DNA from: a virus
Taxonomy: Duplodnaviria > Heunggongvirae > Uroviricota > Caudoviricetes
Length of the DNA stretch: 12,588 nucleotides
Virus record (IMG/VR): IMGVR_UViG_2713896773_000018
Coordinates: 1 to 12,588 of that record
Strand: one strand, 5' to 3'
The notes beneath the pieces were generated by a model. It was not told where the DNA came from. It made no database searches and saw only the letters and a program-made list of their open reading frames with translations. This document shows positions 1 through 12,097 of this stretch, one piece after another (the stretch's first letter is position 1; each line of letters begins with the position of its first letter). Made by a program: the position numbers and the translations under genes.

Positions 1-597
1 TCATTGGGCTGCCTCCTGGCGAAGTTGGGCGGCGCGAATTGCTTTCCACTGCGACCACATTCCGTTGTAATCAGTACCGGAAAGAGTTGAGTTGCGGTAG
101 CCGTCATCAGTGCGCAAACCTTCTAGCGTGGTCTTAGAGATGAATATCTTCTCCATTACCCATTCTTCGAATAAATCACGCTCCGTCGCTTCATCTGGAA
201 TAGCACTTGCCCGTACTTCAGCCAGGAAAGCGTCGGTGGCTGGGGTTTTGTTATCTGACTCCAGCCACTGGTTGTAGTAATAATCGAACATGCCAGTAGG
301 ATAACCACATCCGCTGTGCACGTGGTCTTTCATAGCAGAACCACACATGCAGTAGTCATTGTCAGTATTGCTAATGATGTCGATAAGTTGCTGTGTCCGT
401 TGCTTCAACATCGCATTCTCCGCAGCCAGCGCCGCGCATCTGGCTTTAAGCTCTGATAATCGGTCACTGCATTCCGCCAGCACCACATCAACATCGGTAT
501 CAAGCGGAGGAACATGCATGCTGGCGCGGCCTTTGGTGAAGTCTTCAAGTGCCTTTTCGATTCGTTCTTTCAGTGCTGGCTGTGTATTATTTTTCAT
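1..597 (-). CDS. hypothetical phage protein (198 aa from ATG at 597; Cys/His-rich central segment CMCGSAMKDHVHSGCGYP); nin-region position downstream of ren
   Basis: Long minus-strand ORF with its stop codon at 1-3. The ATG at 595-597 overlaps the stop of the upstream Ren-like gene (ATGA overlap) and is preceded by a GGGGTGAGAG Shine-Dalgarno-like stretch. The upstream GTG at 651 has no usable spacer. No family recognised. Confidence 0.6.
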   Translation of the reverse strand: MKNNTQPALKERIEKALEDFTKGRASMHVPPLDTDVDVVLAECSDRLSELKARCAALAAENAMLKQRTQQLIDIISNTDNDYCMCGSAMKDHVHSGCGYPTGMFDYYYNQWLESDNKTPATDAFLAEVRASAIPDEATERDLFEEWVMEKIFISKTTLEGLRTDDGYRNSTLSGTDYNGMWSQWKAIRAAQLRQEAAQ

Positions 598-935
598 GCT
601 CTCACCCCGTATACGCTTAAAATTCTTCTCATCGCCGCGCTGTTGCGGCACTCCTGGCAGATCACGTTTGCCTCTGTACGCTGCACCAGCTTCGAATTTC
701 CCTTCGGCATAGCCGGGATTGTTTCTGGTGCGTATTTCATGCCGTAATCGGTCAGCCGATAAAGCCGCTGGCCGTATTTTCCTTCGCAGCGGATCAGGCC
801 GTCTGCCAGCAGCGTGCTCACCGTTCCGGATATCTTTTTGGTGTCCATGCCGATAAGCCCTGCCAGTTTGGCGTTGTTCAACCCTGGGTTGTTGCGCAGG
901 GCGGCCAGCACCTGCTCACGGATTGTTATGTTCAT
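594..935 (-). CDS. ren: Ren-like protein (113 aa)
   Basis: Start at the internal ATG 933-935, one nucleotide after the P stop; the ORF-track N-terminal extension overlaps P and is rejected. C-terminus ...CQECRNSAAMRRILSVYGVRA resembles the C-terminus of lambda Ren as I recall it (...KECRQSAAMKRVLAVYGVKR). Position immediately downstream of P matches lambda. Confidence 0.65.
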   Translation of the reverse strand: MNITIREQVLAALRNNPGLNNAKLAGLIGMDTKKISGTVSTLLADGLIRCEGKYGQRLYRLTDYGMKYAPETIPAMPKGNSKLVQRTEANVICQECRNSAAMRRILSVYGVRA

Positions 936-936
936 G

Positions 937-1626
937 TCACACCATCCCGTTCGACTTGTTGCGGTTGTACTTGGCCAGCAGCAGCTGGATCGGCGTCGGC
1001 CCTTGCTCGGCAGCTGGTGCGGCAATAGCCCGGCGTACCGGCGGCACTGGCTTACCCTCGGTGACGCGCCTTTCCCACATGTCCAGCAGATCGCCTGCCT
1101 CGCGTGCCAGTTCACCATGCGTTAACTGGCGCTCGGTGCTGCGGTGGCGCAATTCTACGCAAATGTGGTACATGACCGGCTGCGACCATGGAAATTGCTC
1201 GCTGGAGATGAATTCGAACGAACGATTACGCCATTCCCAGTACTCGGCGATCACCTGGTCAACGTTGACGCCCAGCGCGCCGCCGCTCTGCTTGCACCAG
1301 GCGACGAACTGGCCCGGCGACGGCAGGAATGGGCGCTCCTGGCGGCGGGCAATGCGCATGCCGGCATCGACCTGAGCCATGGTGTGGATCCCGTTCTCCT
1401 GAAACGCCAGCAGCCACTGACGGCGGAATTCGTTCAGGTCTTCCTGGGTGCGGAAGTTCGCCATGCTGGCCGGGAACGCGGCGCGCAGCTCGTTGAACAG
1501 CTTGTTGAATACCTGCGCCACCTGCTCGACCGGCGCGCACTCCTGGTACTGCTCTGGCAGGTTATGGGCCATGCGGCTCATCTGCTCGCGGTCGTGGTTA
1601 CGCATCTGCTCTGCAAGAGATTTCAT
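937..1626 (-). CDS. P: replication protein P-like (DnaB helicase loader), 229 aa
   Basis: Collinear similarity to lambda P from memory along the whole length (e.g. MKSLAEQMRNHDREQMSRMAHNLPEQY... and RRQERPFLPSPGQFVAWC). Start ATG 1624-1626 overlaps the O stop (ATGA) and is preceded by GGGGTGA. Confidence 0.9.
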   Translation of the reverse strand: MKSLAEQMRNHDREQMSRMAHNLPEQYQECAPVEQVAQVFNKLFNELRAAFPASMANFRTQEDLNEFRRQWLLAFQENGIHTMAQVDAGMRIARRQERPFLPSPGQFVAWCKQSGGALGVNVDQVIAEYWEWRNRSFEFISSEQFPWSQPVMYHICVELRHRSTERQLTHGELAREAGDLLDMWERRVTEGKPVPPVRRAIAAPAAEQGPTPIQLLLAKYNRNKSNGMV

Positions 1627-2531
1627 CGGATCACCCCATAGGCCCAGTCAGTGTTGTTGAAGTCCAGATCTGGCTTGACAGCGCGCTGCTCACCTCCGGC
1701 GTTACGCTGCATTGTCAGCTTGTCCCACTGCTTACGCAGGCTTTCGGGACTCAGGATGTTGGTCTGCCAGAAGTGGTGTTTGCTAGCCCAGTCATACAGC
1801 GCGCAGATGTCCTGGTGCGACCGGTTGTCTATCTGGCGCATCAGGCGAACAGTGTTAGACCAGGAGGTCATGTCCGGGGCTTTGCAGGTTGGGTTAATCA
1901 GCTTCACCCTGGAGGAAATCCACTTAGCTGTCTCGAGGTCTTCAGCAGAGCCCCACTTCGCACCGGATGGTGTGTAGACCGCAGCTTCAGGATGAGTTGA
2001 TAAAAATTTCTTCAGACGTGCGTCAGAGGATTCGTCAGAATTCTCGGACGAAGATCTTTTAATACTGTTCTTGTTCTTGTATTGGGTGTCTACCGTTTTC
2101 GGGAAGGTTATTCCTGATTTCGGGAAGGATTTTCCCGTTTTCGGGAATTTTCTTCCCGTTTCCGGTTTGTCTAAAATCCATGCTGAAAGGTCAGTGTTTA
2201 CACCGACGATTTTCATCATGCCCTGCTTCTGTGAAAAGATGATTTTGCGTTCTGCGAGAGACTTAAGCGCGTCCGATACATGCGTATCGCTCAGGCCCGT
2301 AAGCTCGGCAATAACCGTATTTGTCACGCGGTCCTGTTTCTTGTTCCAGCCGTAGGTAAGCCAGATCACCGCCTCAAAACATTGCCATTCCCGGCCTGAC
2401 AGTCTCAGGCGAGGCTTAAGCTGTTGGATCTCGTTAGCGACCTTGGTATACCCGTTCGACAGGTCGGCCATACGACCTCCCGGTTGTTCGGTTTTATTTG
2501 GGAAATTGATTATTTCAGCGGTGTTTGACAT
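1623..2531 (-). CDS. O: replication initiator O-like protein, 302 aa
   Basis: N-terminal region (MSNTAEIINFPNK...LTYGWNK...) resembles lambda O. Start ATG 2529-2531 with GGGAGTAAGT RBS; the upstream in-frame extension from the ORF track is rejected. A central repeated peptide FPKTGKSFPKSGITFPKT is encoded by the DNA iterons. Confidence 0.85.
   Translation of the reverse strand: MSNTAEIINFPNKTEQPGGRMADLSNGYTKVANEIQQLKPRLRLSGREWQCFEAVIWLTYGWNKKQDRVTNTVIAELTGLSDTHVSDALKSLAERKIIFSQKQGMMKIVGVNTDLSAWILDKPETGRKFPKTGKSFPKSGITFPKTVDTQYKNKNSIKRSSSENSDESSDARLKKFLSTHPEAAVYTPSGAKWGSAEDLETAKWISSRVKLINPTCKAPDMTSWSNTVRLMRQIDNRSHQDICALYDWASKHHFWQTNILSPESLRKQWDKLTMQRNAGGEQRAVKPDLDFNNTDWAYGVIR
2045..2160. other. 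phage origin of replication (ori-lambda-like): three 21-bp-spaced iterons with internal dyad symmetry plus an adjacent AT-rich stretch, inside the O gene
   Basis: TCGGGAA(GG) recurs at 2099, 2120 and 2141, exactly 21 bp apart, each followed by an inverted TTCC(C/T)G arm (CGGGAAGGATTTTCCCG, CGGGAATTTTCTTCCCG). The flanking 2045-2090 segment is AT-rich (cttttaatactgttcttgttcttgtatt). Lambda ori has the same layout within O. Confidence 0.7.
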
Positions 2532-2616
2532 ACTTACTCCCGTTACTTGCCGTAACACAGTGTGATAAGGGCCTTTGAAGTTACCGCTTCAAGGGCTTTT
2601 TCTTTTCTTGTGCCTC

Positions 2617-3159
2617 TCATATAACCCCCAGCATCGATGTAACCATCGTCATCAGCGGTCCTACCTGCTCCGGCATGAGGCGAAACAATGACGCTATGCC
2701 CTCGCTTACCTCCTTCATTTTCTGGTGCTCAGGCGCGTTCAGGAGAACGGCTTGCTTTGCTTCTGAACATTCCTTCATGGCAGATGCGATCAGCGACATG
2801 GTGTCGTTCTGCGGCGCCAGGCGTGTACGAAACTCAACAGGAAGAACAGCCATGATTGCCGGGGTCAGTTCTCTAACGTTCTCGCGGTACTGATCGGAGT
2901 CGAAGCGGTTATCCAGAAAGCGAAAAAGTTTCTGGCGCGCCCTGCTGATGTCTTCTGGGAAGCTGATGGCGGTACCGCCCTGCTCCCGGTATTCGTTGAT
3001 GATCAGCGCTGACACTACGTCCTGATTGTCCAGGGACGACGACCATGCACGGACCGCATCGCGGATTTTGTCGTGACCTGGCTCCGCCTTAGGTTGAGCG
3101 CGGTTTATCATCGCTCCCGGGTGTATTCCGGTATTGTGTTGATACGCAAGTGAATGCAT
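2617..3159 (-). CDS. CII-position regulatory protein, YdaT / CP76-type (180 aa)
   Basis: ATG at 3157-3159 with AAGGGA RBS. Lies between cro and O where lambda has cII, but is twice the size of CII. Segments IINEYREQGG... and RELTPAIMAVLPVEFRTRL resemble Rac prophage YdaT as I recall it. Family assignment is from memory and unverified. Confidence 0.5.
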   Translation of the reverse strand: MHSLAYQHNTGIHPGAMINRAQPKAEPGHDKIRDAVRAWSSSLDNQDVVSALIINEYREQGGTAISFPEDISRARQKLFRFLDNRFDSDQYRENVRELTPAIMAVLPVEFRTRLAPQNDTMSLIASAMKECSEAKQAVLLNAPEHQKMKEVSEGIASLFRLMPEQVGPLMTMVTSMLGVI

Positions 3160-3189
3160 TGCTTTCCCTTTCGTGGTTAGAGCCGCCGG

Positions 3190-3411
3190 TTAGGCGGCAA
3201 AGATACCTGGATATAGAACTTCGCGAGGAAGTCCGGTTACTTCTTCGTATTTACGCATTTTTGTTACTGGAAGGCTGCCACCTCGCTTTTTAAGCATATT
3301 GATGGCCTGAGGCGTTACGCCGACCTTTTCAGCAAGCACCTTTTGAGAGCCGCCCACTGCATTAATGGCTTTCTCAAGCGGGGTGCTGGCGTTGGATTTT
3401 TTGTTGATCAT
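3190..3411 (-). CDS. cro: Cro-like HTH regulator (73 aa)
   Basis: First gene divergent from the repressor. HTH segment QKVLAEKVGVTPQAINMLKKRGG. ATG at 3409-3411 with a GGAG RBS. Confidence 0.8.
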   Translation of the reverse strand: MINKKSNASTPLEKAINAVGGSQKVLAEKVGVTPQAINMLKKRGGSLPVTKMRKYEEVTGLPREVLYPGIFAA

Positions 3412-3432
3412 GTTTTGCTCCGCTCATGTGTA

Positions 3433-3506
3433 ATCAACACCATGTTAATTCATGGCGTGGATTAAATCAACATTATGGTGATGGAAAAAATCCACATGTT
3501 GTTTAC
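3433..3506. promoter_or_regulatory. OR-like operator cluster: three 17-bp sites of form ATC[AC]ACA-N3-TGnTnAn between cro and cI
   Basis: Site A 3433-3449 ATCAACA CCA TGTTAAT; site B 3466-3482 ATCAACA TTA TGGTGAT; site C 3490-3506 ATCCACA TGT TGTTTAC. The same half-site recurs in the OL region at 5458-5541. Confidence 0.65.
3442..3470 (-). promoter_or_regulatory. candidate PR promoter for cro (minus strand): -35 TTGATT (3465-3470), -10 TAACAT (3442-3447), 17-bp spacer
   Basis: Hexamers read on the minus strand; they overlap operator sites A and B as PR overlaps OR1/OR2 in lambda. The -10 is a weak match, so the exact hexamers are uncertain. Confidence 0.4.
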
Positions 3507-3528
3507 CATGCATGGAGCGGAGGGTTTT

Positions 3529-4248
3529 ATGAGCAGCATTTCTGAAAGAATTAAATTTTTACTGGCAAGGGAAGGCTTGAAGCAGCGGGATTTGGCTGAG
3601 GCTTTGTCGACTAGCCCACAGACCGTTAACAACTGGATAAAAAGAGACGCGTTAAGTCGTGAGGCGGCGCAACAAATATCTGAAAAATTCGGTTATTCTC
3701 TTGACTGGTTATTAAATGGAGAGGGTTCTCCAAAGAAGGATCTGGAGAGCAACATCCCGCCAGAGTCTGAGTGGGGAACTGTCGACGCTTGGGACAAAAA
3801 TACCCCCCTACCTGACGATGAGGTGGAAGTACCGTTTCTGAAGGATATCGAGTTTGCGTGTGGTGATGGACGAGTACACGATGAGGATCACAACGGTTTT
3901 AAATTGCGCTTTTCAAAAGCAACGCTCCGTCGAGTTGGAGCTAACACAGATGGGTCTGGCATCCTGTGTTTCCCTGCTACTGGCGACAGCATGGAACCTG
4001 TGATACCGGATGGTACGACTGTAGCCGTCGATACGAACAACAAACGCATAGTTGATGGGAAACTGTATGCCATTGGTCAGACAGATGGCGGGAATGGTCA
4101 ACTCAAGCGCATTAAACAGCTGTATCGTAAGCCAGGTGGGAAGCTGATCATCCGCAGTTACAACAACGACTCCTACCCAGACGAAGAGGCTGATATTGAT
4201 GATGTCGAGATAATTGGCCGTCTCTTCTGGTACTCGGTATTGCTGTAG
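3529..4248 (+). CDS. cI: CI-like prophage repressor (XRE-type HTH + S24 LexA-like autopeptidase), 239 aa
   Basis: N-terminal HTH (RDLAEALSTSPQTVNNWIKRD). C-terminal S24 signatures GDSMEP (catalytic Ser) and GQLKRIKQL (Lys). The ATG at 3529 has a GGAGCGGAGGG RBS; the upstream ATGs at 3475/3481 lie inside operator site B and lack an RBS. Confidence 0.9.
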   Translation: MSSISERIKFLLAREGLKQRDLAEALSTSPQTVNNWIKRDALSREAAQQISEKFGYSLDWLLNGEGSPKKDLESNIPPESEWGTVDAWDKNTPLPDDEVEVPFLKDIEFACGDGRVHDEDHNGFKLRFSKATLRRVGANTDGSGILCFPATGDSMEPVIPDGTTVAVDTNNKRIVDGKLYAIGQTDGGNGQLKRIKQLYRKPGGKLIIRSYNNDSYPDEEADIDDVEIIGRLFWYSVLL

Positions 4249-4294
4249 CGGTGGCCTGATGAGACGTTTTGGTGAAAGCATATAAGGACTGTTG

Positions 4295-5161
4295 ATGGAA
4301 AACACTGGCTTACACGATGTTAATTTTTCACTTAGATATGACGGTTTGGATGCTGAAAAGCATGAGATTGAACTTTCTTCGCTCGGTGAATCGCTAAAGG
4401 GATTTTCGAAGATATTAGCTACAGCTGGAACCTTCGCATTAACCCAAAAGTACTCGCGAAGCACCTCAACTCAAGAGGTTAAAATTTACGCTACCGAAGC
4501 TAGGGCCAATTGTTTTTCTCTTGATACTATCATGAATTTTATCAGTCAGTCTCAATTGTTCTCAGGGTCTGCGGGGGCTATACTTGGCGCATTAGTGCCT
4601 TATATCTTCGCTAAAAACTCGCAGAAGAAAGAGGAAATGAAATACCTAAAAGAAGCACTTGAGAAGGCAATTGAGGCCCTCGGAAATAAAGATAAAGATA
4701 CCATCTCAGGTCTAATCTCAGTGATTGACAAGATGGCTAGTGAGTTACGCCCATCAGTTAGACAGGCAGTTTCCCCCATCGGTACCACCTGTAATAAGAT
4801 AAGCGTCACACCGGGGAATGGTTTCAAGCCTGCTGTAATTGATGAGCAAGATAAAGCAGTAATAGACCAGTTGGACGACGACGAAGTTCTTGGCTTAAGG
4901 GAGTATCGAATCTTCCTTACTGAATTCGACGCTCACCGAATGACCGCTAAAGTCATTATAGAAGGTGATGATTCAGATAAGCGCATCTCAGCACAAATAA
5001 GCGATCCATCTGCTTCAAAGGCAGACAACCCGTATCTCATTTCACTTAGTCGTTTTCTGTCAACGGGTCTAAGTCATGAGTCAGCGGTAAAAGTAACTGC
5101 CAAAGCAGCAGTTAGAAAAGGGGCTATTAGTAAACTTTTCATAGTTGATATTGAGCTTTAA
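4295..5161 (+). CDS. hypothetical protein (288 aa) in the rex/immunity-moron position; one short hydrophobic stretch, no recognised domain
   Basis: ATG at 4295 with AAGGA RBS (the ORF track starts at a TTG at 4292). Immediately downstream of and co-oriented with cI, followed by a terminator. AT-rich: about 38% GC in a hand-counted 130-nt sample. Hydrophobic stretch [17 protein letters not shown], then a K/E-rich helical segment. Confidence 0.8.
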
Positions 5162-5619: not shown

Positions 5620-5843
5620 CATGCAAAGTCGGAACAGCACTCAGTAATCCTGTTTAGACCCCAACGTACAAATTCGGCGCAGCACCGGGCGCGATCCGGT
5701 CGGTGTGAGGCTACCCCCTCGCGAGAGCGATAAAGGCGTGGGAACGGGCAACACTGGCTGGATGAGAGGTGCGAAGCGCAAACAGATTTATTCCAGTCCA
5801 TTCGAAGTTGAGTGGGCTGGGCTGAATCACAAGAGGATTTTTT

Positions 5844-6056
5844 ATGACTCAGACATACATTCCGGCGTGTTTAAGAGACCTTCCTAAGAAGCGTCAGAAG
5901 CCACGCAAACAGGCGATTAAAGAAGCGCAAGTGGAAGTTCTGAATAAGGCAATCGCATCGATAAAAGACGATATGCGTGCGTTCAAAACAGAAGAGCAGC
6001 GTCGCGGTCATTACCAGGCGATCAGCACACTCTCACAGATTCGTGATGAGTTGTAG
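5844..6056 (+). CDS. small basic protein (70 aa), first gene of the PL operon (N position); function unassigned
   Basis: Strong RBS AAGAGGA with a 6-nt spacer. Basic N-terminal segment LPKKRQKPRKQAIK. No clear arginine-rich motif of the lambda N type, so an antiterminator role is positional inference only. Confidence 0.6.
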   Translation: MTQTYIPACLRDLPKKRQKPRKQAIKEAQVEVLNKAIASIKDDMRAFKTEEQRRGHYQAISTLSQIRDEL

Positions 6057-6079
6057 AAGCTGATAGATAAAGCATTTCT

Positions 6080-6097
6080 CCCGCATCAGCGGGTAAC
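6080..6097 (+). repeat. copy 1 of a 17-bp direct repeat CCGCATCAGCGGGTAAC (hairpin CCCGC-ATCA-GCGGG)
   Basis: Identical 17-mer at 6081-6097 and 6303-6319, each just upstream of a gene's RBS. Confidence 0.8.
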
Positions 6098-6113
6098 TAA
6101 GTGGAGAGTACGT

Positions 6114-6302
6114 ATGCACAAGTGTCAATTCTGTGGGTACTTTCTGGCATCTGAAGAGATGCAGAGAATATCTGTAAACATGGTTGGCAGGCCTTACAAC
6201 ATCTGCATTCCATGCTCAGAAAAGTACAAAAAGAAAGGCCTGTGGGATTCGGCAAAAAACGATATCGACTGGAAATCACTTCCATGCGTCGATGAGACAT
6301 AA
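6114..6302 (+). CDS. small zinc-ribbon-like protein (62 aa; CxxC...CxxC)
   Basis: RBS GGAGAG with a 5-nt spacer. Cys pairs CQFC and CIPC about 24 residues apart. AT-rich. Flanked by the 17-bp direct repeats. Confidence 0.6.
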   Translation: MHKCQFCGYFLASEEMQRISVNMVGRPYNICIPCSEKYKKKGLWDSAKNDIDWKSLPCVDET

Positions 6303-6319
6303 CCGCATCAGCGGGTAAC
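6303..6319 (+). repeat. copy 2 of the 17-bp direct repeat CCGCATCAGCGGGTAAC
   Basis: Exact match to 6081-6097; begins one nucleotide after the stop of the 6114-6302 gene. Confidence 0.8.
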
Positions 6320-6335
6320 GACAGAGGGTAAGTCA

Positions 6336-7004
6336 ATGATTCGTCTTAACAACGAAATTAAAAATCAGCTATGCCATAACCTGCTTCTCGCATCCCCATT
6401 GTTTGAGAAAGCGAAAGCTGCGGTTAATGAGAGGGCGAAAATTGTTGAAGAAATTCGACAGGCATTGCTCAAGCAGGAAAACACTAGCGATGAGCAAATA
6501 ACTAAGGCTCGGGAAGATTTCAAAGATAACTCCTTCATCAAGATGCAGGTCGGCGCTAAAACTGCAACTTTAAAGGTCATTATTAATGGTGAGTATCACG
6601 AATTAGCCAGGAACGGTTTGGATCATCGCTATCGCCACCGTGGAAAACATATTGGTAAGCACGATCTTGAAAGCGACCTGTTCTTCGGAGCTTCCTTCGC
6701 GCCTGTAATTGATTCGGGTTTCGTTCCTGAAAGTTACAGCACGCTGAAGAAAGTTGGAAAATTACACGACCGACTCACTGAATCGACGGTAACCATCAAC
6801 GTTCTTTACGATGAAGTTGATGCCTTCCAATTGCAGGTTAAAGGTGCTCTAACCAAAGTCTCAACTGTTAAAAAACTGGCTGAGATGTGGCCTGAGGCAG
6901 TGCCATATTTGCCTGAGGTGGAACGCCGTGAAGCGACCAGCACCGCACTTGCCATTCCCGTTGAAACGCTAAACGCCCTTTGCGGCATACCAAAGAATGA
7001 ATGA
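6336..7004 (+). CDS. hypothetical protein (222 aa), AT-rich accessory gene in the ral/sieB-equivalent position
   Basis: RBS GAGGG. A long ORF with no internal stops in AT-rich DNA, followed by a strong terminator. No family recognised. Confidence 0.8.
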   Translation: MIRLNNEIKNQLCHNLLLASPLFEKAKAAVNERAKIVEEIRQALLKQENTSDEQITKAREDFKDNSFIKMQVGAKTATLKVIINGEYHELARNGLDHRYRHRGKHIGKHDLESDLFFGASFAPVIDSGFVPESYSTLKKVGKLHDRLTESTVTINVLYDEVDAFQLQVKGALTKVSTVKKLAEMWPEAVPYLPEVERREATSTALAIPVETLNALCGIPKNE

Positions 7005-7026
7005 CCCGCTCCGGCGGGTTTTTTAT
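7005..7026 (+). terminator. rho-independent terminator
   Basis: CCCGC-TCCG-GCGGG stem-loop followed by TTTTTTAT, immediately after the TGA at 7002-7004. Confidence 0.8.
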
Positions 7027-7165
7027 CGGCCATACATAGGCAGATTTTCGAGTCTGCCCATTTATGACAACCGGCGGCCATCCACCGCCCATTGAAACAC
7101 TGAATAAATGCGTTGAAGTCTTGTATTAACCGTTCGGCGGCGCGGCCTTAAGCGCGGAGATGATT

Positions 7166-7675
7166 ATGACTCTTATCGAATTGACCAAAAAGAAAATGGC
7201 AATTGAAGCCGAACTGGCTCAGTTGAAGGCGAAGTTTGTTGATGACACCTCACGCATCGGTAAAGAGCTGATTGCCGTGTCTGAAGGTATCAACCAGGCC
7301 AATAAAGGCCTAACGGTTGAGATGGTTAGGCATGGCATGACGATCATTAACTTCGGTGACCCGAAACAAAGCATGGAGCGGCGCGGGTGTGTTGAAGACG
7401 CGATTAACGACATTGCGTCGGGGTTCAACCGTCTGAGCGAGCGTTATTTTGGCACAAAAAACTACGCCCACTGGAGCGATCAGCGTGAAGACCATCGCTA
7501 TGGATATGGCCCTAAACACGGCTCTATCTGCTTCAAGATCGGTTTAACTGGCACCGCACTTAATAAGCTGGCAAGCGGCGGGTTGAGTGATTACGACGCT
7601 GAATGCGCTATCTACTGCCTGATGAACATTGACGCCATCAATGCGGCAAACGACAAAGCCCGGGAGGCATCATGA
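7166..7675 (+). CDS. hypothetical phage protein (169 aa)
   Basis: GGAG at 7156-7159 favours the ATG at 7166 over the one at 7160. The stop overlaps the next ORF's start (ATGA). Confidence 0.7.
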   Translation: MTLIELTKKKMAIEAELAQLKAKFVDDTSRIGKELIAVSEGINQANKGLTVEMVRHGMTIINFGDPKQSMERRGCVEDAINDIASGFNRLSERYFGTKNYAHWSDQREDHRYGYGPKHGSICFKIGLTGTALNKLASGGLSDYDAECAIYCLMNIDAINAANDKAREAS

Positions 7676-7830
7676 CAGTCACCCATAACGGAAAGAAGTA
7701 CACCGCCAAAAAGCTCAACGATAACGAGTGGCAGCTGACGTCCGTATCGGCACCGCGTGAAAAGCTGACGCTTAACCGCTGGCATATGAAGCTGGCTGGC
7801 CTCCTGGAACAGGTTGAGGTGAAGGTATGA
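7672..7830 (+). CDS. small hypothetical protein (52 aa; MTVTHNGKKYTAKKLNDNEWQLTSVSAPREKLTLNRWHMKLAGLLEQVEVKV), not in the supplied ORF track
   Basis: Strong RBS GGGAGG 5 nt upstream of the ATG at 7672. ATGA overlaps with both the upstream and downstream genes suggest translational coupling. Confidence 0.55.
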   Translation: MTVTHNGKKYTAKKLNDNEWQLTSVSAPREKLTLNRWHMKLAGLLEQVEVKV

Positions 7831-8333
7831 TGCGAAAGCACAAGTTGCCAAGTGCTGAGGAGATAGATTCCTTGCTGGATTACAACCCTGAAACCGGAGT
7901 ATTTACGTGGAAAGTGACGAAATCAGGATGGGTTGTAAAGGGGCGGCCTGCTGGTTCAAAAAACAATAATGGCTATCTCCGAGTTGGTATTGGAAGAAGG
8001 CACTACTTCCTTTCTCGAATCGCATTTTTCTTATGCACCGGGGAATCACCTGAAGAAGTAGACCATATCAATGGTGACAGAACAGATAACAGGGCGTGCA
8101 ACTTAAGAGCCGCAAGCCGTCATGAAAACTGCCTCAATAAGTCGGTAAGAAGCGACAGCAGGACTGGTGTAAAGGGCGTCTCATGGCGACCGGATGTTAA
8201 AAAATGGTCTGCACGATCAACTGATTCATCGGGGAAGAGAGTGTTTTTAGGTTACTACCGCACCATCAGAGATGCGGTGGCTGTCCTTAATGATTTTCGG
8301 AGAGAACAGCATGGTGAGTTTGCAAAAAATTAG
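7827..8333 (+). CDS. HNH homing endonuclease with C-terminal AP2-type DNA-binding domain (168 aa)
   Basis: HNH motif EEVDHINGDRTDNRACNLRAASRHENCLN. AP2-like segment GVKGVSWRPDVKKWSARST...KRVFLGYY. RBS GAGGTGAAGG. Confidence 0.85.
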   Translation: MMRKHKLPSAEEIDSLLDYNPETGVFTWKVTKSGWVVKGRPAGSKNNNGYLRVGIGRRHYFLSRIAFFLCTGESPEEVDHINGDRTDNRACNLRAASRHENCLNKSVRSDSRTGVKGVSWRPDVKKWSARSTDSSGKRVFLGYYRTIRDAVAVLNDFRREQHGEFAKN

Positions 8334-8544
8334 CAGCAACTTGCACTACGGCACCACCCCGCTCATTCGCCAGTGCGTCACGCCAGGCATGATGGCATTG
8401 CATGAAGGCCGCACCTATCGCGTCTCAGCAGTCATTCAGGAGCGCAAATGGGTGTACCTGCACACCGATGCAGAAATTATCCGCCTCAGTGACTGCGTGA
8501 TTGACGTCCTTCTGGACGGTCACGGAAACCCTATCCAGCACTAA
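8311..8544 (+). CDS. hypothetical protein (77 aa), start overlapping the 3' end of the HNH gene by 23 nt
   Basis: RBS GGAGAG with a 6-nt spacer before the ATG at 8311; the ORF-track start at 8272 has no RBS. Confidence 0.5.
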   Translation: MVSLQKISSNLHYGTTPLIRQCVTPGMMALHEGRTYRVSAVIQERKWVYLHTDAEIIRLSDCVIDVLLDGHGNPIQH

Positions 8545-9880: not shown

Positions 9881-10798
9881 ATGAGCTTAACCCTTGTTGA
9901 TTTCGTCAAACAACAGGAGCCGCTTTTCATTAAGGCGGCCACAGACGAGCGGATGGTGTGGGCGAAGGAAAGCCAGTTCGCCATCCAGCTATTTCAGAAC
10001 AATGACTACCTCGCGAAAGTCGCATTCCAGAACCAGACCAGCACGCAGAACGCAATAATCAACGTTGCGGCTATCGGTATTTCGCTAAACCCAGCTCAGA
10101 AGCTGGCTTACCTGGTTCCGCGTAAAGGGGCAGTTTGCCTCGACATCAGTTACATGGGCCTGATGCACATTGCGCAGCAGTCTGGCGCCATTAAATGGTG
10201 TCAGTCGGCAATTGTTCGCAGAAACGACCAGTTCCGCCGCGAAGGGCTCGATAAGCCGCCGGTCCATATCTACAACGACTTCGATACCGAAGAGCAGCGC
10301 GGGGACATCGTAGGGGCATATGTAACGGTAAAAACTGACGATGGTGATTACCTCACCCATACGATGCGCATCGATGCCATTTACTCCATCCGTGACCGGT
10401 CTGAAGCATGGAAGAAGTACAAATCTGACAACAGTAAAAAGTGTCCATGGGTCACTGACGAAGAACAGATGATCCTCAAAACAGTCGTGAAGCAGGCAGC
10501 AAAATACTGGCCTCGCCGTGAGCGCCTGGACGCCGCCATAGACCACGTTAACACCGAGGGCGAAGAAGGTATCAACTTTACAGCAGAGCGTCAGCCTGAG
10601 CGCGATATAACGCCGCTTAGCGAAACCACGCAGAAAGAGATAAACGACCTGCTTGTCTCTTTGGATAAGACATGGGATGACGATCTTCTCCCTCTCTGCT
10701 CACGCATTTTCAAACGCCCTATCACGCAGCCAGCAGACCTGACAGAGCTTGAAGGTGTTAAAGCTCTCGGGTTCCTCAGACAAAAGGCGGCAGCATGA
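9881..10798 (+). CDS. single-strand annealing protein: RecT-like core with a Red-beta (Bet)-like C-terminal tail, 305 aa
   Basis: Perfect RBS AGGAGG. The C-terminal ~70 aa ([13 protein letters not shown]...[16 protein letters not shown]...[12 protein letters not shown]) closely match the lambda Bet C-terminus as I recall it. The N-terminal ~230 aa look RecT-like rather than Bet-like. Stop overlaps the exo start (ATGA). Confidence 0.8.
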
Positions 10799-11475
10799 CA
10801 CCAGAAATTATCCTGGCCCGGACCGGCATTGACGTAACCACTATCCAGCAGGGCGACGAGGCGTGGCACCGGCTGCGCCTCGGCGTTATCACCGCATCTG
10901 AAGTTCACAACGTCATTTCCAAGCCCAGATCTGGGAAGAAGTGGACAGACATGAAAATTTCCTACTTCCACACCCTACTCGCCGAGGTATGCACCGGCGT
11001 AGCGCCAGAGGTTAACGCCAAGGCGCTGGCCTGGGGGAAGCAGTATGAAGAAGACGCCCGCACCCTCTTCGAGTTCACCACCGACGTGAAAGTCACGGAG
11101 TCTCCGATCTTGTTCCGTGACGAGAGCATGCGCACCGCGTGCTCACCTGACGGCCTTTGCAGTAACGGATTCGGCCTCGAATTGAAATGCCCGTTCACCT
11201 CCCGCGACTTCATGAAATTCCGCCTTGGCGGTTTCGAAGCCATCAAGTCTGCCTACATGGCCCAGGTGCAGTTCAGCATGTGGGTGACCGGGAAAGACGC
11301 CTGGTTCTTTGCCAACTACGACCCGCGCATGAAGCGCGAAGGTATTCACCACGTCGTCGTTGAGCGGGATCCACAGTACATGACCAATTTCAACGAAATG
11401 GTGCCGGAGTTCATCGAGAAGATGGACGAGGCGCTGGCGGAGATCGGCTTCAGGTTCGGGGAGCAGTGGAAATGA
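10795..11475 (+). CDS. exo: lambda-type 5'-3' exonuclease (Red-alpha / YqaJ family), 226 aa
   Basis: Near-collinear, high-identity match to lambda Exo from memory ([14 protein letters not shown]...[24 protein letters not shown]...[31 protein letters not shown]...[10 protein letters not shown]). Confidence 0.93.
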
Positions 11476-11518
11476 AACGCACACCATTTTACCGCAGGCC
11501 CGGGCGAACCGGGCAATC

Positions 11519-12097
11519 ATGAAACGCCTGGACGATGTTTGCGGCAAAGCAGGATGGCGCAATGAATACCGCGATATTCCCAACAACGGCGGAGTTGAAT
11601 GCGGCATATCAATCAAGATTGATTCCGAATGGGTAACCAAATGGGATGCTGCTGAAAACACGCAGGTAGAAGCCGTCAAAGGTGGTCGTTCAGGTGCAAT
11701 GAAGCGTGCTGCCGTTCAGTGGGGAATAGGTCGGTATCTGTATAACCTTGAGGAAGGTTTCGCACAAACATCTCTCGATAAAAAGCAGGGATGGCACAGG
11801 GCAAAACTCAAGGGTGGAACAGGATTTTACTGGCTCCCTCCATCGCTGCCGGGATGGGCAATCCCAGCATCAGATAACAAACCATCACCAGAAAATACCA
11901 ACCATAAATCTCCATCGGTTGACTGCGAGCAAATCCTGAAAGACTTCAGCGATTATGCGTCAACAGAAACTGATAAGAAAAAACTCATCGAGCGTTATCA
12001 GCGTGACTGGCAATTAATGGCTGGCAACGAGGAGGCGCAGGCTAAATGCGTTCAGGTAATGAACATCAGAGTTAACGAACTAAAACAGGCGGCATAA
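11519..12097 (+). CDS. Erf/Rad52-superfamily-like protein, apparently N-terminally shortened (192 aa)
   Basis: C-terminal ~55 aa (EQILKDFSDYASTETDKKKLIERYQRDWQLMAGNEEAQAKCVQVMNIRVNELKQAA) closely match the P22 Erf C-terminus as I recall it. Rad52-like motif AMKRAAVQWGIGRYLY at residues ~60-75 leaves too little upstream sequence for a complete annealing domain. Weak RBS. Confidence 0.55.
   Translation: MKRLDDVCGKAGWRNEYRDIPNNGGVECGISIKIDSEWVTKWDAAENTQVEAVKGGRSGAMKRAAVQWGIGRYLYNLEEGFAQTSLDKKQGWHRAKLKGGTGFYWLPPSLPGWAIPASDNKPSPENTNHKSPSVDCEQILKDFSDYASTETDKKKLIERYQRDWQLMAGNEEAQAKCVQVMNIRVNELKQAA

Follow-up and report, generated by a model that had tools for sequence, protein, structure and literature searches.

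A phi80-type lambdoid replication origin within the O-like initiator gene of a mosaic phage or prophage

The stretch of viral DNA analysed here, 12,588 nucleotides of IMG/VR record IMGVR_UViG_2713896773_000018 and referred to below as the window, almost certainly holds a phi80-type lambdoid replication origin, located in the linker-coding part of an O-like initiator gene, gene 15. This origin is already known and is not novel: it belongs to the classical phage phi80 and is annotated in GenBank. Positions 1500-2700 of the window are 100% identical over 1201 bases to phi80 (X13065, early region; JX871397, complete genome) and 99.5% identical to the phages HK225 and mEp237. In JX871397 the open reading frame is described as 'replication initiation protein 15; similar to lambda O' and the next gene as 'protein 14; similar to lambda P', and four protein_bind features labelled gp15 map within gene 15 (positions in Table 1). 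An earlier note had proposed, from the letters of the DNA, a lambda-style ori inside the initiator gene, a proposal borne out by the identity with phi80, by the gp15 sites of JX871397 and by alignment with the lambda ori. Binding and replication at the origin would be expected from the phi80 annotation together with the analogy to lambda.

Across the whole window only 64% matches phi80, at about 95% identity, so that the window is, judged by its sequence, a phi80-like mosaic phage or prophage with a phi80 replication module. The module can be recognised by its identity with gene 15 and by the iterons inside that gene. The origin DNA, the four annotated gp15 sites, the flanking genes 14, 15 and cII, and the M3 RNA are all the same as in phi80, and the origin itself shows no difference, whereas the surrounding phage is mosaic. 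The phi80 origin was sequenced in the late 1970s, and it has long been known that lambda and phi80 differ in their iteron sequences and N-terminal domains. Lambda-phi80 hybrid phages were reportedly used to map origin specificity (work ascribed to Furth & Yates 1978, Grosschedl & Hobom 1979 and Moore et al. 1979). A literature search found no open paper explicitly describing the phi80 iterons. Searched with the entire window, Rfam returned no family at the gathering threshold, and thus no RNA element from that collection explains the repeats described below.

The initiator matches Pfam Phage_rep_O over residues 20-118 (E=6e-25) and PHROG 277, 'replication initiation O-like' (E=3e-122). Over its full length it is 39% identical to lambda O; the C-terminal half, which aligns with that of lambda O, is better conserved, and the N-terminal domains of the two proteins are strongly diverged. 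Within the N-terminal domain, Pfam reports a weak HTH_Crp_2 match at residues 68-102. A PDB sequence search with gp15 returned a weak match of residues 52-108 to a metal-dependent transcriptional regulator chain, 5zr4_A (E=0.009), and found no solved O-family structure. The repeat array corresponds to residues 122-148 and Phage_rep_O ends at residue 118, which places the origin between the N-terminal DNA-binding and the C-terminal P-interacting domains. The window encodes in cis both the cognate initiator, of the O family, and a helicase loader of the P family, as is typical of a lambdoid origin.

Table 1. Features of the replication module, in positions of the window
Feature	Position	Strand	Evidence
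P-like helicase loader gene (phi80 gene 14), the initiator's partner	937..1626	-	Pfam Phage_lambda_P, E=1e-49; PHROG 109 'P-like helicase loader'; phi80 annotation
Initiator gene (phi80 gene 15, lambda O-like, 302 aa), contains the origin	1623..2531	-	Pfam, PHROG, phi80 identity
Conserved right arm, imperfect palindrome around GAATTC, encodes SSENSDESSD	2022..2053	-	Lambda-like DNA, inverted repeats
AT-rich, strand-asymmetric segment, presumed unwinding site	2054..2089	-	31% GC, stability, strand bias
Iteron 4, TTCCCG-AAAA-CGGTAG, outer half-site degenerate (2 mismatches), adjoins the AT-rich segment	2090..2105	-	JX871397 gp15 protein_bind, mapped 2091-2105
Iteron 3, TTCCCG-AAAT-CAGGAA	2111..2126	-	JX871397 gp15 protein_bind, mapped 2111-2126; pattern match, 1 mismatch
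Iteron 2, TTCCCG-AAAA-CGGGAA, perfect dyad	2132..2147	-	JX871397 gp15 protein_bind, mapped 2132-2147; exact pattern match
Iteron 1, AAACCG-GAAA-CGGGAA, outer half-site degenerate (3 mismatches)	2153..2168	-	JX871397 gp15 protein_bind, mapped 2153-2167
N-terminal origin-binding (winged-helix type) domain coding region	2178..2474	-	Phage_rep_O, aa 20-118

In the sense of the gene, the array reads AAACCG GAAA CGGGAA gaaaa TTCCCG AAAA CGGGAA aatcc TTCCCG AAAT CAGGAA taacc TTCCCG AAAA CGGTAG, that is, half-sites of two alternating kinds, eight in all, separated by 4 or 5 bp on a 10/11-bp lattice. A repeat search recovers it as three in-register copies of a 31-nt unit, starting at 2093, 2114 and 2135 (spacing 21 and 21), along with overlapping inverted repeats, and TRF reports 2093-2165 with a period of 21, 3.5 copies and a score of 90. 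With 3 mismatches allowed, the two possible patterns give 9 and 7 matches where 5.5 and 5.7 are expected, which is uninformative; the search was repeated at no more than one mismatch, where 0.03-0.04 matches to either pattern are expected by chance. At that threshold CGGGAA-N5-TTCCCG, for which the expectation is 0.03, is found at 2100-2116 (one mismatch), 2121-2137 and 2142-2158 (none), and three matches were reached in 0 of 200 dinucleotide-preserving shuffles. The array can also be read as four 16-bp dyads, TTCCCG-N4-CGGGAA, with a 21-bp period, giving the tandem dyad iterons about two helical turns apart that characterise a lambdoid origin. Translation of the minus-strand reading frame over the array gives ...ETGRKFPKTGKSFPKSGITFPKTVD... 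(in a longer stretch, ...DKPETGRKFPKTGKSFPKSGITFPKTVDTQYKNKNSIKRSSSENSDESSD...), with a period of 7 residues or 21 nt. The iterons do account for the repeated peptide, as had been suggested, because a 21-nt period yields the 7-residue repeat FPKTG/FPKSG/FPKT. The A-runs of the array lie roughly 8-12 bp apart and alternate between both kinds of spacer. Intrinsic bending is known for the lambda iterons, and the spacing of the A-runs is compatible with bending of the same kind.

A dyad within a transcribed region can also suggest a terminator. The plus-strand dyad at 2132-2147 is followed by TTTTCTT, and a consensus scan flags this site as terminator-like on the plus strand, with a stem of 6 pairs and a loop of 4 nt. 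It is nevertheless barely credible that antisense transcription of the initiator gene ends here at an intrinsic terminator. The scan gave 6 sites against 2.7 expected in shuffles, which makes single matches weak; the stem is short, and a hairpin arises automatically from an iteron dyad with A/T-rich spacers. Moreover, positions 1500-3600 contain 0 promoter-like sites, with no antisense promoter found there, and the known antisense RNA (M3/oop-like) ends far off, at a hairpin at 2567-2600.

Relatives can be used to ask what has been conserved in this region. A scan of one genome per species yielded 27 loci that encode relatives of the N-terminal domain with 77-99% amino acid identity, from Enterobacter, Citrobacter, Kluyvera, Klebsiella, Pantoea, Pectobacterium, Morganella, Xenorhabdus and others. 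Together with the window and the phages PHB10 and Meifeng, and leaving aside the frameshifted locus L020, these make up 29 distinct sequences, whose alignment has no gaps in the array. Third-position variability, taken as the mean minor-allele fraction at third codon positions in the 29 loci, is 0.338 in the N-terminal domain, 0.094 in the iteron array, 0.083 in the AT-rich segment, 0.169 in the right arm and 0.404 downstream of the origin. The Mann-Whitney p of 4e-9 for the array is indicative only, as the 29 loci are related by descent and their independence is overstated, but the contrast with both flanks is clear. Since synonymous positions in the iterons and the AT-rich region are 3.6-fold less variable than those of the flanking coding sequence, purifying selection acts on the DNA itself, in the iterons, the AT-rich segment and the right arm. 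The length of the array is also stable. Among the related loci from genomes and IMG/VR, 103 of 106 have an array of 84 bp, or four units; the exceptions are a locus with five units (L079), one with two (L091) and L020, in which a 1-nt deletion breaks the frame. The IMG/VR scan, in which 80 of 407 were kept, mostly near-identical copies, added no variable-spacing relatives.

This selection also bears on the simplest alternative, in which the 21-bp repeat only encodes a heptapeptide (FPKTG) that has been duplicated within the initiator's flexible linker, and plays no part as DNA. The repeat is indeed in frame and encodes a 7-residue periodic peptide in the linker region, and indels of whole 21-bp units do occur, as the loci with five and two units show. 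The alternative is nonetheless very unlikely, since the synonymous positions of the half-sites are almost invariant while flanking ones vary freely, dyad symmetry is meaningless for a peptide repeat, and the phi80 record labels the sites as protein-binding. Two loci, L031 (Morganella) and L033, are of particular use here. In most of their half-sites TTCCCG has become TTACCG and CGGGAA has become CGGTAA, at complementary positions of the dyad, and the peptide has changed from FPKTG to an LPETV-like form while the dyad was kept, the opposite of what a purely coding repeat would lead one to expect. The same two loci carry unique substitutions in the N-terminal domain: within the putative recognition helix, N replaces the S of an LSD motif and the D of a VSDA motif, and in the wing, R replaces the Q of an FSQK motif. 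These substitutions are candidate specificity determinants, and they stem from one evolutionary event.

The regular lattice raises the question of how the half-sites should be paired. The units would be either four 16-bp dyads of the type TTCCCGAAAACGGGAA or three 17-bp dyads of the type CGGGAAAATCCTTCCCG, and the lattice alone fits both registers because the period is strictly 21 bp. The earlier note had chosen three iterons of the form CGGGAA...TTCCCG; its 21-bp period and its dyads are real, but the count and the register are probably different, with four iterons TTCCCG-N4-CGGGAA as the best reading. In favour of three functional dyads, bound by three initiator dimers and flanked by AAACCG and CGGTAG as non-functional remnants, it can be said that the pattern is nearly perfect (1, 0 and 0 mismatches against 2, 1, 0 and 3 for the four dyads) and that the half-sites lie 11 bp apart from centre to centre, as in the lambda iterons (6+5). 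Several observations make this an improbable arrangement. It would invert the half-sites relative to the lambda iteron TCCCTC...GAGGGA, although the DNA-binding domains are homologous. With four dyads, iteron 4 in the gene sense, ...AAAACAGGGGGACAC, aligns base for base, as does the right arm, with lambda (ITN4, ...AAAACGGTAGACAC), and this last dyad lies at the same distance from the AT-rich segment as ITN4 does in lambda (...TTCCCGAAAACGGTAGACAC against ...TCCCTCAAAACAGGGGGACAC). Conservation of the outer half-sites equals that of the inner ones, AAACCG being kept in 25 and CGGTAG in 27 of the 29 loci with their synonymous sites invariant (in AAACCG, its synonymous G). Across the 29 loci, variability is lower in the 4-bp spacers (0.131) than in the 5-bp spacers (0.271), and in lambda, likewise, the spacers within iterons are conserved and the gaps between iterons vary in sequence and length. 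Finally, the GenBank annotation of phi80 has four sites. Orientation, the ITN4 alignment, the conservation of outer half-sites and spacers, and this annotation all favour the four-iteron register.

Co-variation of the half-sites in natural variants does not separate the two registers. TTACCG occurs at the third iteron in 12 of the 29 loci, mostly together with an unchanged CGGGAA in both registers, and in L031 and L033 each type of spacer is flanked on either side by changed half-sites, as both registers would allow. Alternatively, the initiator might bind in either register, as four dimers or as three, or might form a continuous filament of head-to-head and tail-to-tail contacts; we consider such binding quite unlikely.

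With four iterons as the preferred reading, the last of them is directly followed by an AT-rich, strand-asymmetric segment, as in other lambdoid origins. It has 31% GC over the 35 bp at 2055-2089, against 51% in the window, and its O-sense strand is 57% A and 11% T. Its 30-mer at 2054-2083 (23% GC) is the least stable of the gene by nearest-neighbour energies and falls in the top 0.2% of the window. The AT-rich segment that the earlier reading placed beside the iterons can thus be accepted on both composition and stability. Beyond it lies a right arm, TCGTCCGAGAATTCTGACGAATCCTCTGAC (about 2022-2053), that is almost identical to the lambda sequence TCGTCAGAGAATTCTGGCGAATCCTCTGAC; this DNA is nearly identical in lambda, PHB10 and a Klebsiella phage. 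Inverted repeats occur at the homologous place in lambda, and the arms of the palindrome centred on GAATTC are 12 nt long and 92% complementary in lambda, and 9 nt long and 89% complementary in the window. Because this lambda-homologous palindromic arm lies downstream of the AT-rich segment, the origin is wider than the 2045-2160 first assigned to it. That location was correct, but the array reaches 2168 and the origin, delimited by sequence, extends down to about 2022, for a total extent of about 2022-2168.

The resemblance to ori-lambda is extensive. In both, the initiator gene contains the origin, which falls between the coding regions of the DNA-binding and the P-binding domain and has four iterons (ITN1-4 in lambda), each a dyad with a pyrimidine-rich left half, a G-rich right half and an A-rich spacer. 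The order is also the same, with four iterons followed by an A-rich, strand-asymmetric AT-rich segment and then a palindromic arm; the right arm is near-identical over TCGTC.GAGAATTCTG.CGAATCCTCTGAC, and the O and P proteins are homologous. The differences lie mainly in the iterons. The unit here is TTCCCG-AAAA-CGGGAA (16 bp) and in lambda TCCCTC-AAAAC-GAGGGA (17-18 bp), and a direct comparison of TTCCCGAAAACGGGAA with ATCCCTCAAAACGAGGGA of lambda agrees with the earlier statement that the iteron sequences differ. The start-to-start spacing is strictly 21 bp here but 20, 24 and 23 bp in lambda, and the phi80 type, unlike lambda, forms a perfectly regular alternating 10/11-bp lattice of half-sites that is without indels in 103 of the 106 loci. 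The AT-rich segment is less extreme than that of lambda, which has 22% GC and 73% purines. The N-terminal domain is strongly diverged from that of lambda O, which implies a different origin specificity; diverged iterons and a diverged N-terminal domain, in proteins that are 39% identical overall, would fit the distinct initiator specificity that had been predicted.

The number of iterons is not fixed among lambdoid phages. The Stx phages P27 and 933W have lambda-type origins with six iterons, and the count can vary by whole units (PMC7466680). They share with the window an O gene that contains a lambdoid origin, comprising iterons and an AT-rich tract, and a unit-wise variation like that of L079 and L091. 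However, their iterons and O proteins are of the lambda type and not of the phi80 type found here.

Natural mosaics show which parts of the module are inherited together. PHB10 and Meifeng have the N-terminal domain and the iterons in common with the window and have diverged C-terminal halves, and in these two phages and the 27 genomes the N-terminal domain is inherited with the iterons. The Klebsiella phage ST16-OXA48phi5.2 presents the reverse case. It has the same kind of C-terminal domain (80% amino acid identity), AT-rich segment, right arm and P-like gene, but an unrelated N-terminal domain, and the slot of the iterons is occupied by 12-bp-periodic repeats of the CATGTGCGG type. These comparisons of sequence agree with joint inheritance of the iterons and the N-terminal domain, and of the AT-rich region and right arm with the C-terminal domain and P-like gene. 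In the lambda model (PMC6022878), recognition of the iterons falls to the N-terminal domain and cooperation with P to the C-terminal domain, and mosaics of this kind are what would be expected under such a division of labour.

A mechanism can be proposed by analogy with lambda. One dimer of lambda O binds each iteron, and the four dimers form an O-some that puts the neighbouring AT-rich region under stress and unwinds part of it; O binds P through its C-terminal domain, and P in turn brings DnaB (PMC6022878; PMC7466680). The two iterons nearest the AT-rich tract have been reported as the minimum for unwinding and for in-vitro replication in lambda (PMC7466680). In the window, rightward transcription from the immunity region would produce gp15 and gp14, and dimers of the gp15 N-terminal winged-helix domain would bind the four 16-bp dyads TTCCCG-N4-CGGGAA, exactly 21 bp apart. 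Four such dimers could then assemble into a nucleoprotein complex resembling the O-some, in which the A-tract-phased DNA is bent or wrapped, and the resulting stress would open the adjoining A-rich, low-stability segment. The C-terminal domain of gp15 would recruit gp14, the P-like protein, carrying the host DnaB helicase, and host chaperones would free DnaB for bidirectional replication. The stoichiometry of binding, the formation of the O-some, the unwinding and the helicase loading are all modelled on lambda.

As a true origin that was recognised from sequence alone, this region can serve as a positive control for such reading, with little discovery value of its own. The comparative set of 29 distinct loci, and 106 in total, documents selection at the DNA level on iterons within coding sequence and a conserved count of four. 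It also includes one lineage in which both types of half-site have changed together, alongside the putative recognition helix. If binding in two registers or as a filament were true, it would mean an O-some architecture or a switching behaviour that is undescribed for lambda.

The match of the window to phi80 ends at position 895, and immediately after the P-like gene comes an ORF for a Ren-like exclusion protein, at a place where phi80 carries another gene, one that is N15 gp45-like. The match is also almost absent across 5761-8344, where phi80 has N, tL1 and the kil-region genes and the window has other ORFs, as outlined in the table. Single-strand annealing proteins of two distinct families can be found within one recombination region (9881-12097), in which RecT is paired with an exonuclease and the pair is followed by a Rad52/22-family ORF. 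This last ORF lies beyond the phi80-matching part of the window.

Features of the window outside the initiator gene, with their matches
Feature	Position	Strand	Match or remark
Ren-like exclusion protein ORF	594-935	-	phrog_142; Pfam winged-helix match
oop-like antisense RNA (phi80 M3 RNA)	2542-2601	+	
phi80 'cII'	2617-3159	-	YdaT_toxin match
phi80 'cro-like' gene 30	3190-3411	-	Pfam YdaS_toxin/HTH_3
phi80 protein 40A ORF	4292-5161	+	DUF7946 and DUF7947 matches; between cI and leftward operators
Nmad5-domain ORF	6336-7004	+	domain match
phrog_13608 ORF	7160-7675	+	PHROG match
HNH endonuclease ORF	7827-8333	+	
RecT	9881-10798		
YqaJ-type exonuclease	10795-11475		paired with RecT
Rad52/22-family ORF	11519-12097		after RecT and exonuclease

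The position of the protein 40A ORF suggests a prophage-expressed gene. The length of phi80 cII differs between the two phi80 records, being 132 aa in X13065 but 180 aa in JX871397. The M3 RNA has a strong terminator hairpin of 15 pairs at 2567-2600, a little upstream of where the initiator gene begins; a search of Rfam over this RNA returned zero families at threshold.

Variation of the iteron array itself can be followed in related loci that carry relatives of the initiator gene. The number of units is one variable: the array of L079 (1561-1665) has five units, with iteron 3 duplicated, and that of L091 (1561-1602) has two units in 42 bp. In the case of the Kluyvera locus L020, a 1-nt deletion in the array (1861-1943) shifts the frame of the initiator gene, the explanation being a defective prophage or else an error in the assembly. 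Klebsiella phage ST16-OXA48phi5.2 (L006) has repeats of the CATGTGCGG type, with a 12-bp period, occupying the iteron slot at 1668-1818. These repeats encode AHEAAH-like peptides, the O-like gene that bears them has an unrelated N-terminal domain, and they are presumably a separate iteron class. A further class, TTACCG-N4-CGGTAA, stands in place of most array half-sites in L031 (Morganella morganii) and L033, where the variant arrays lie approximately 15-100 nt past the match to the initiator's N-terminal, origin-binding domain. Alongside these variant iterons, the initiator of both loci shows three substitutions, two of them in its putative recognition helix (S to N, D to N) and one in the wing (Q to R). 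As judged from the sequences of this single lineage, the substitutions are candidate specificity determinants of the initiator.
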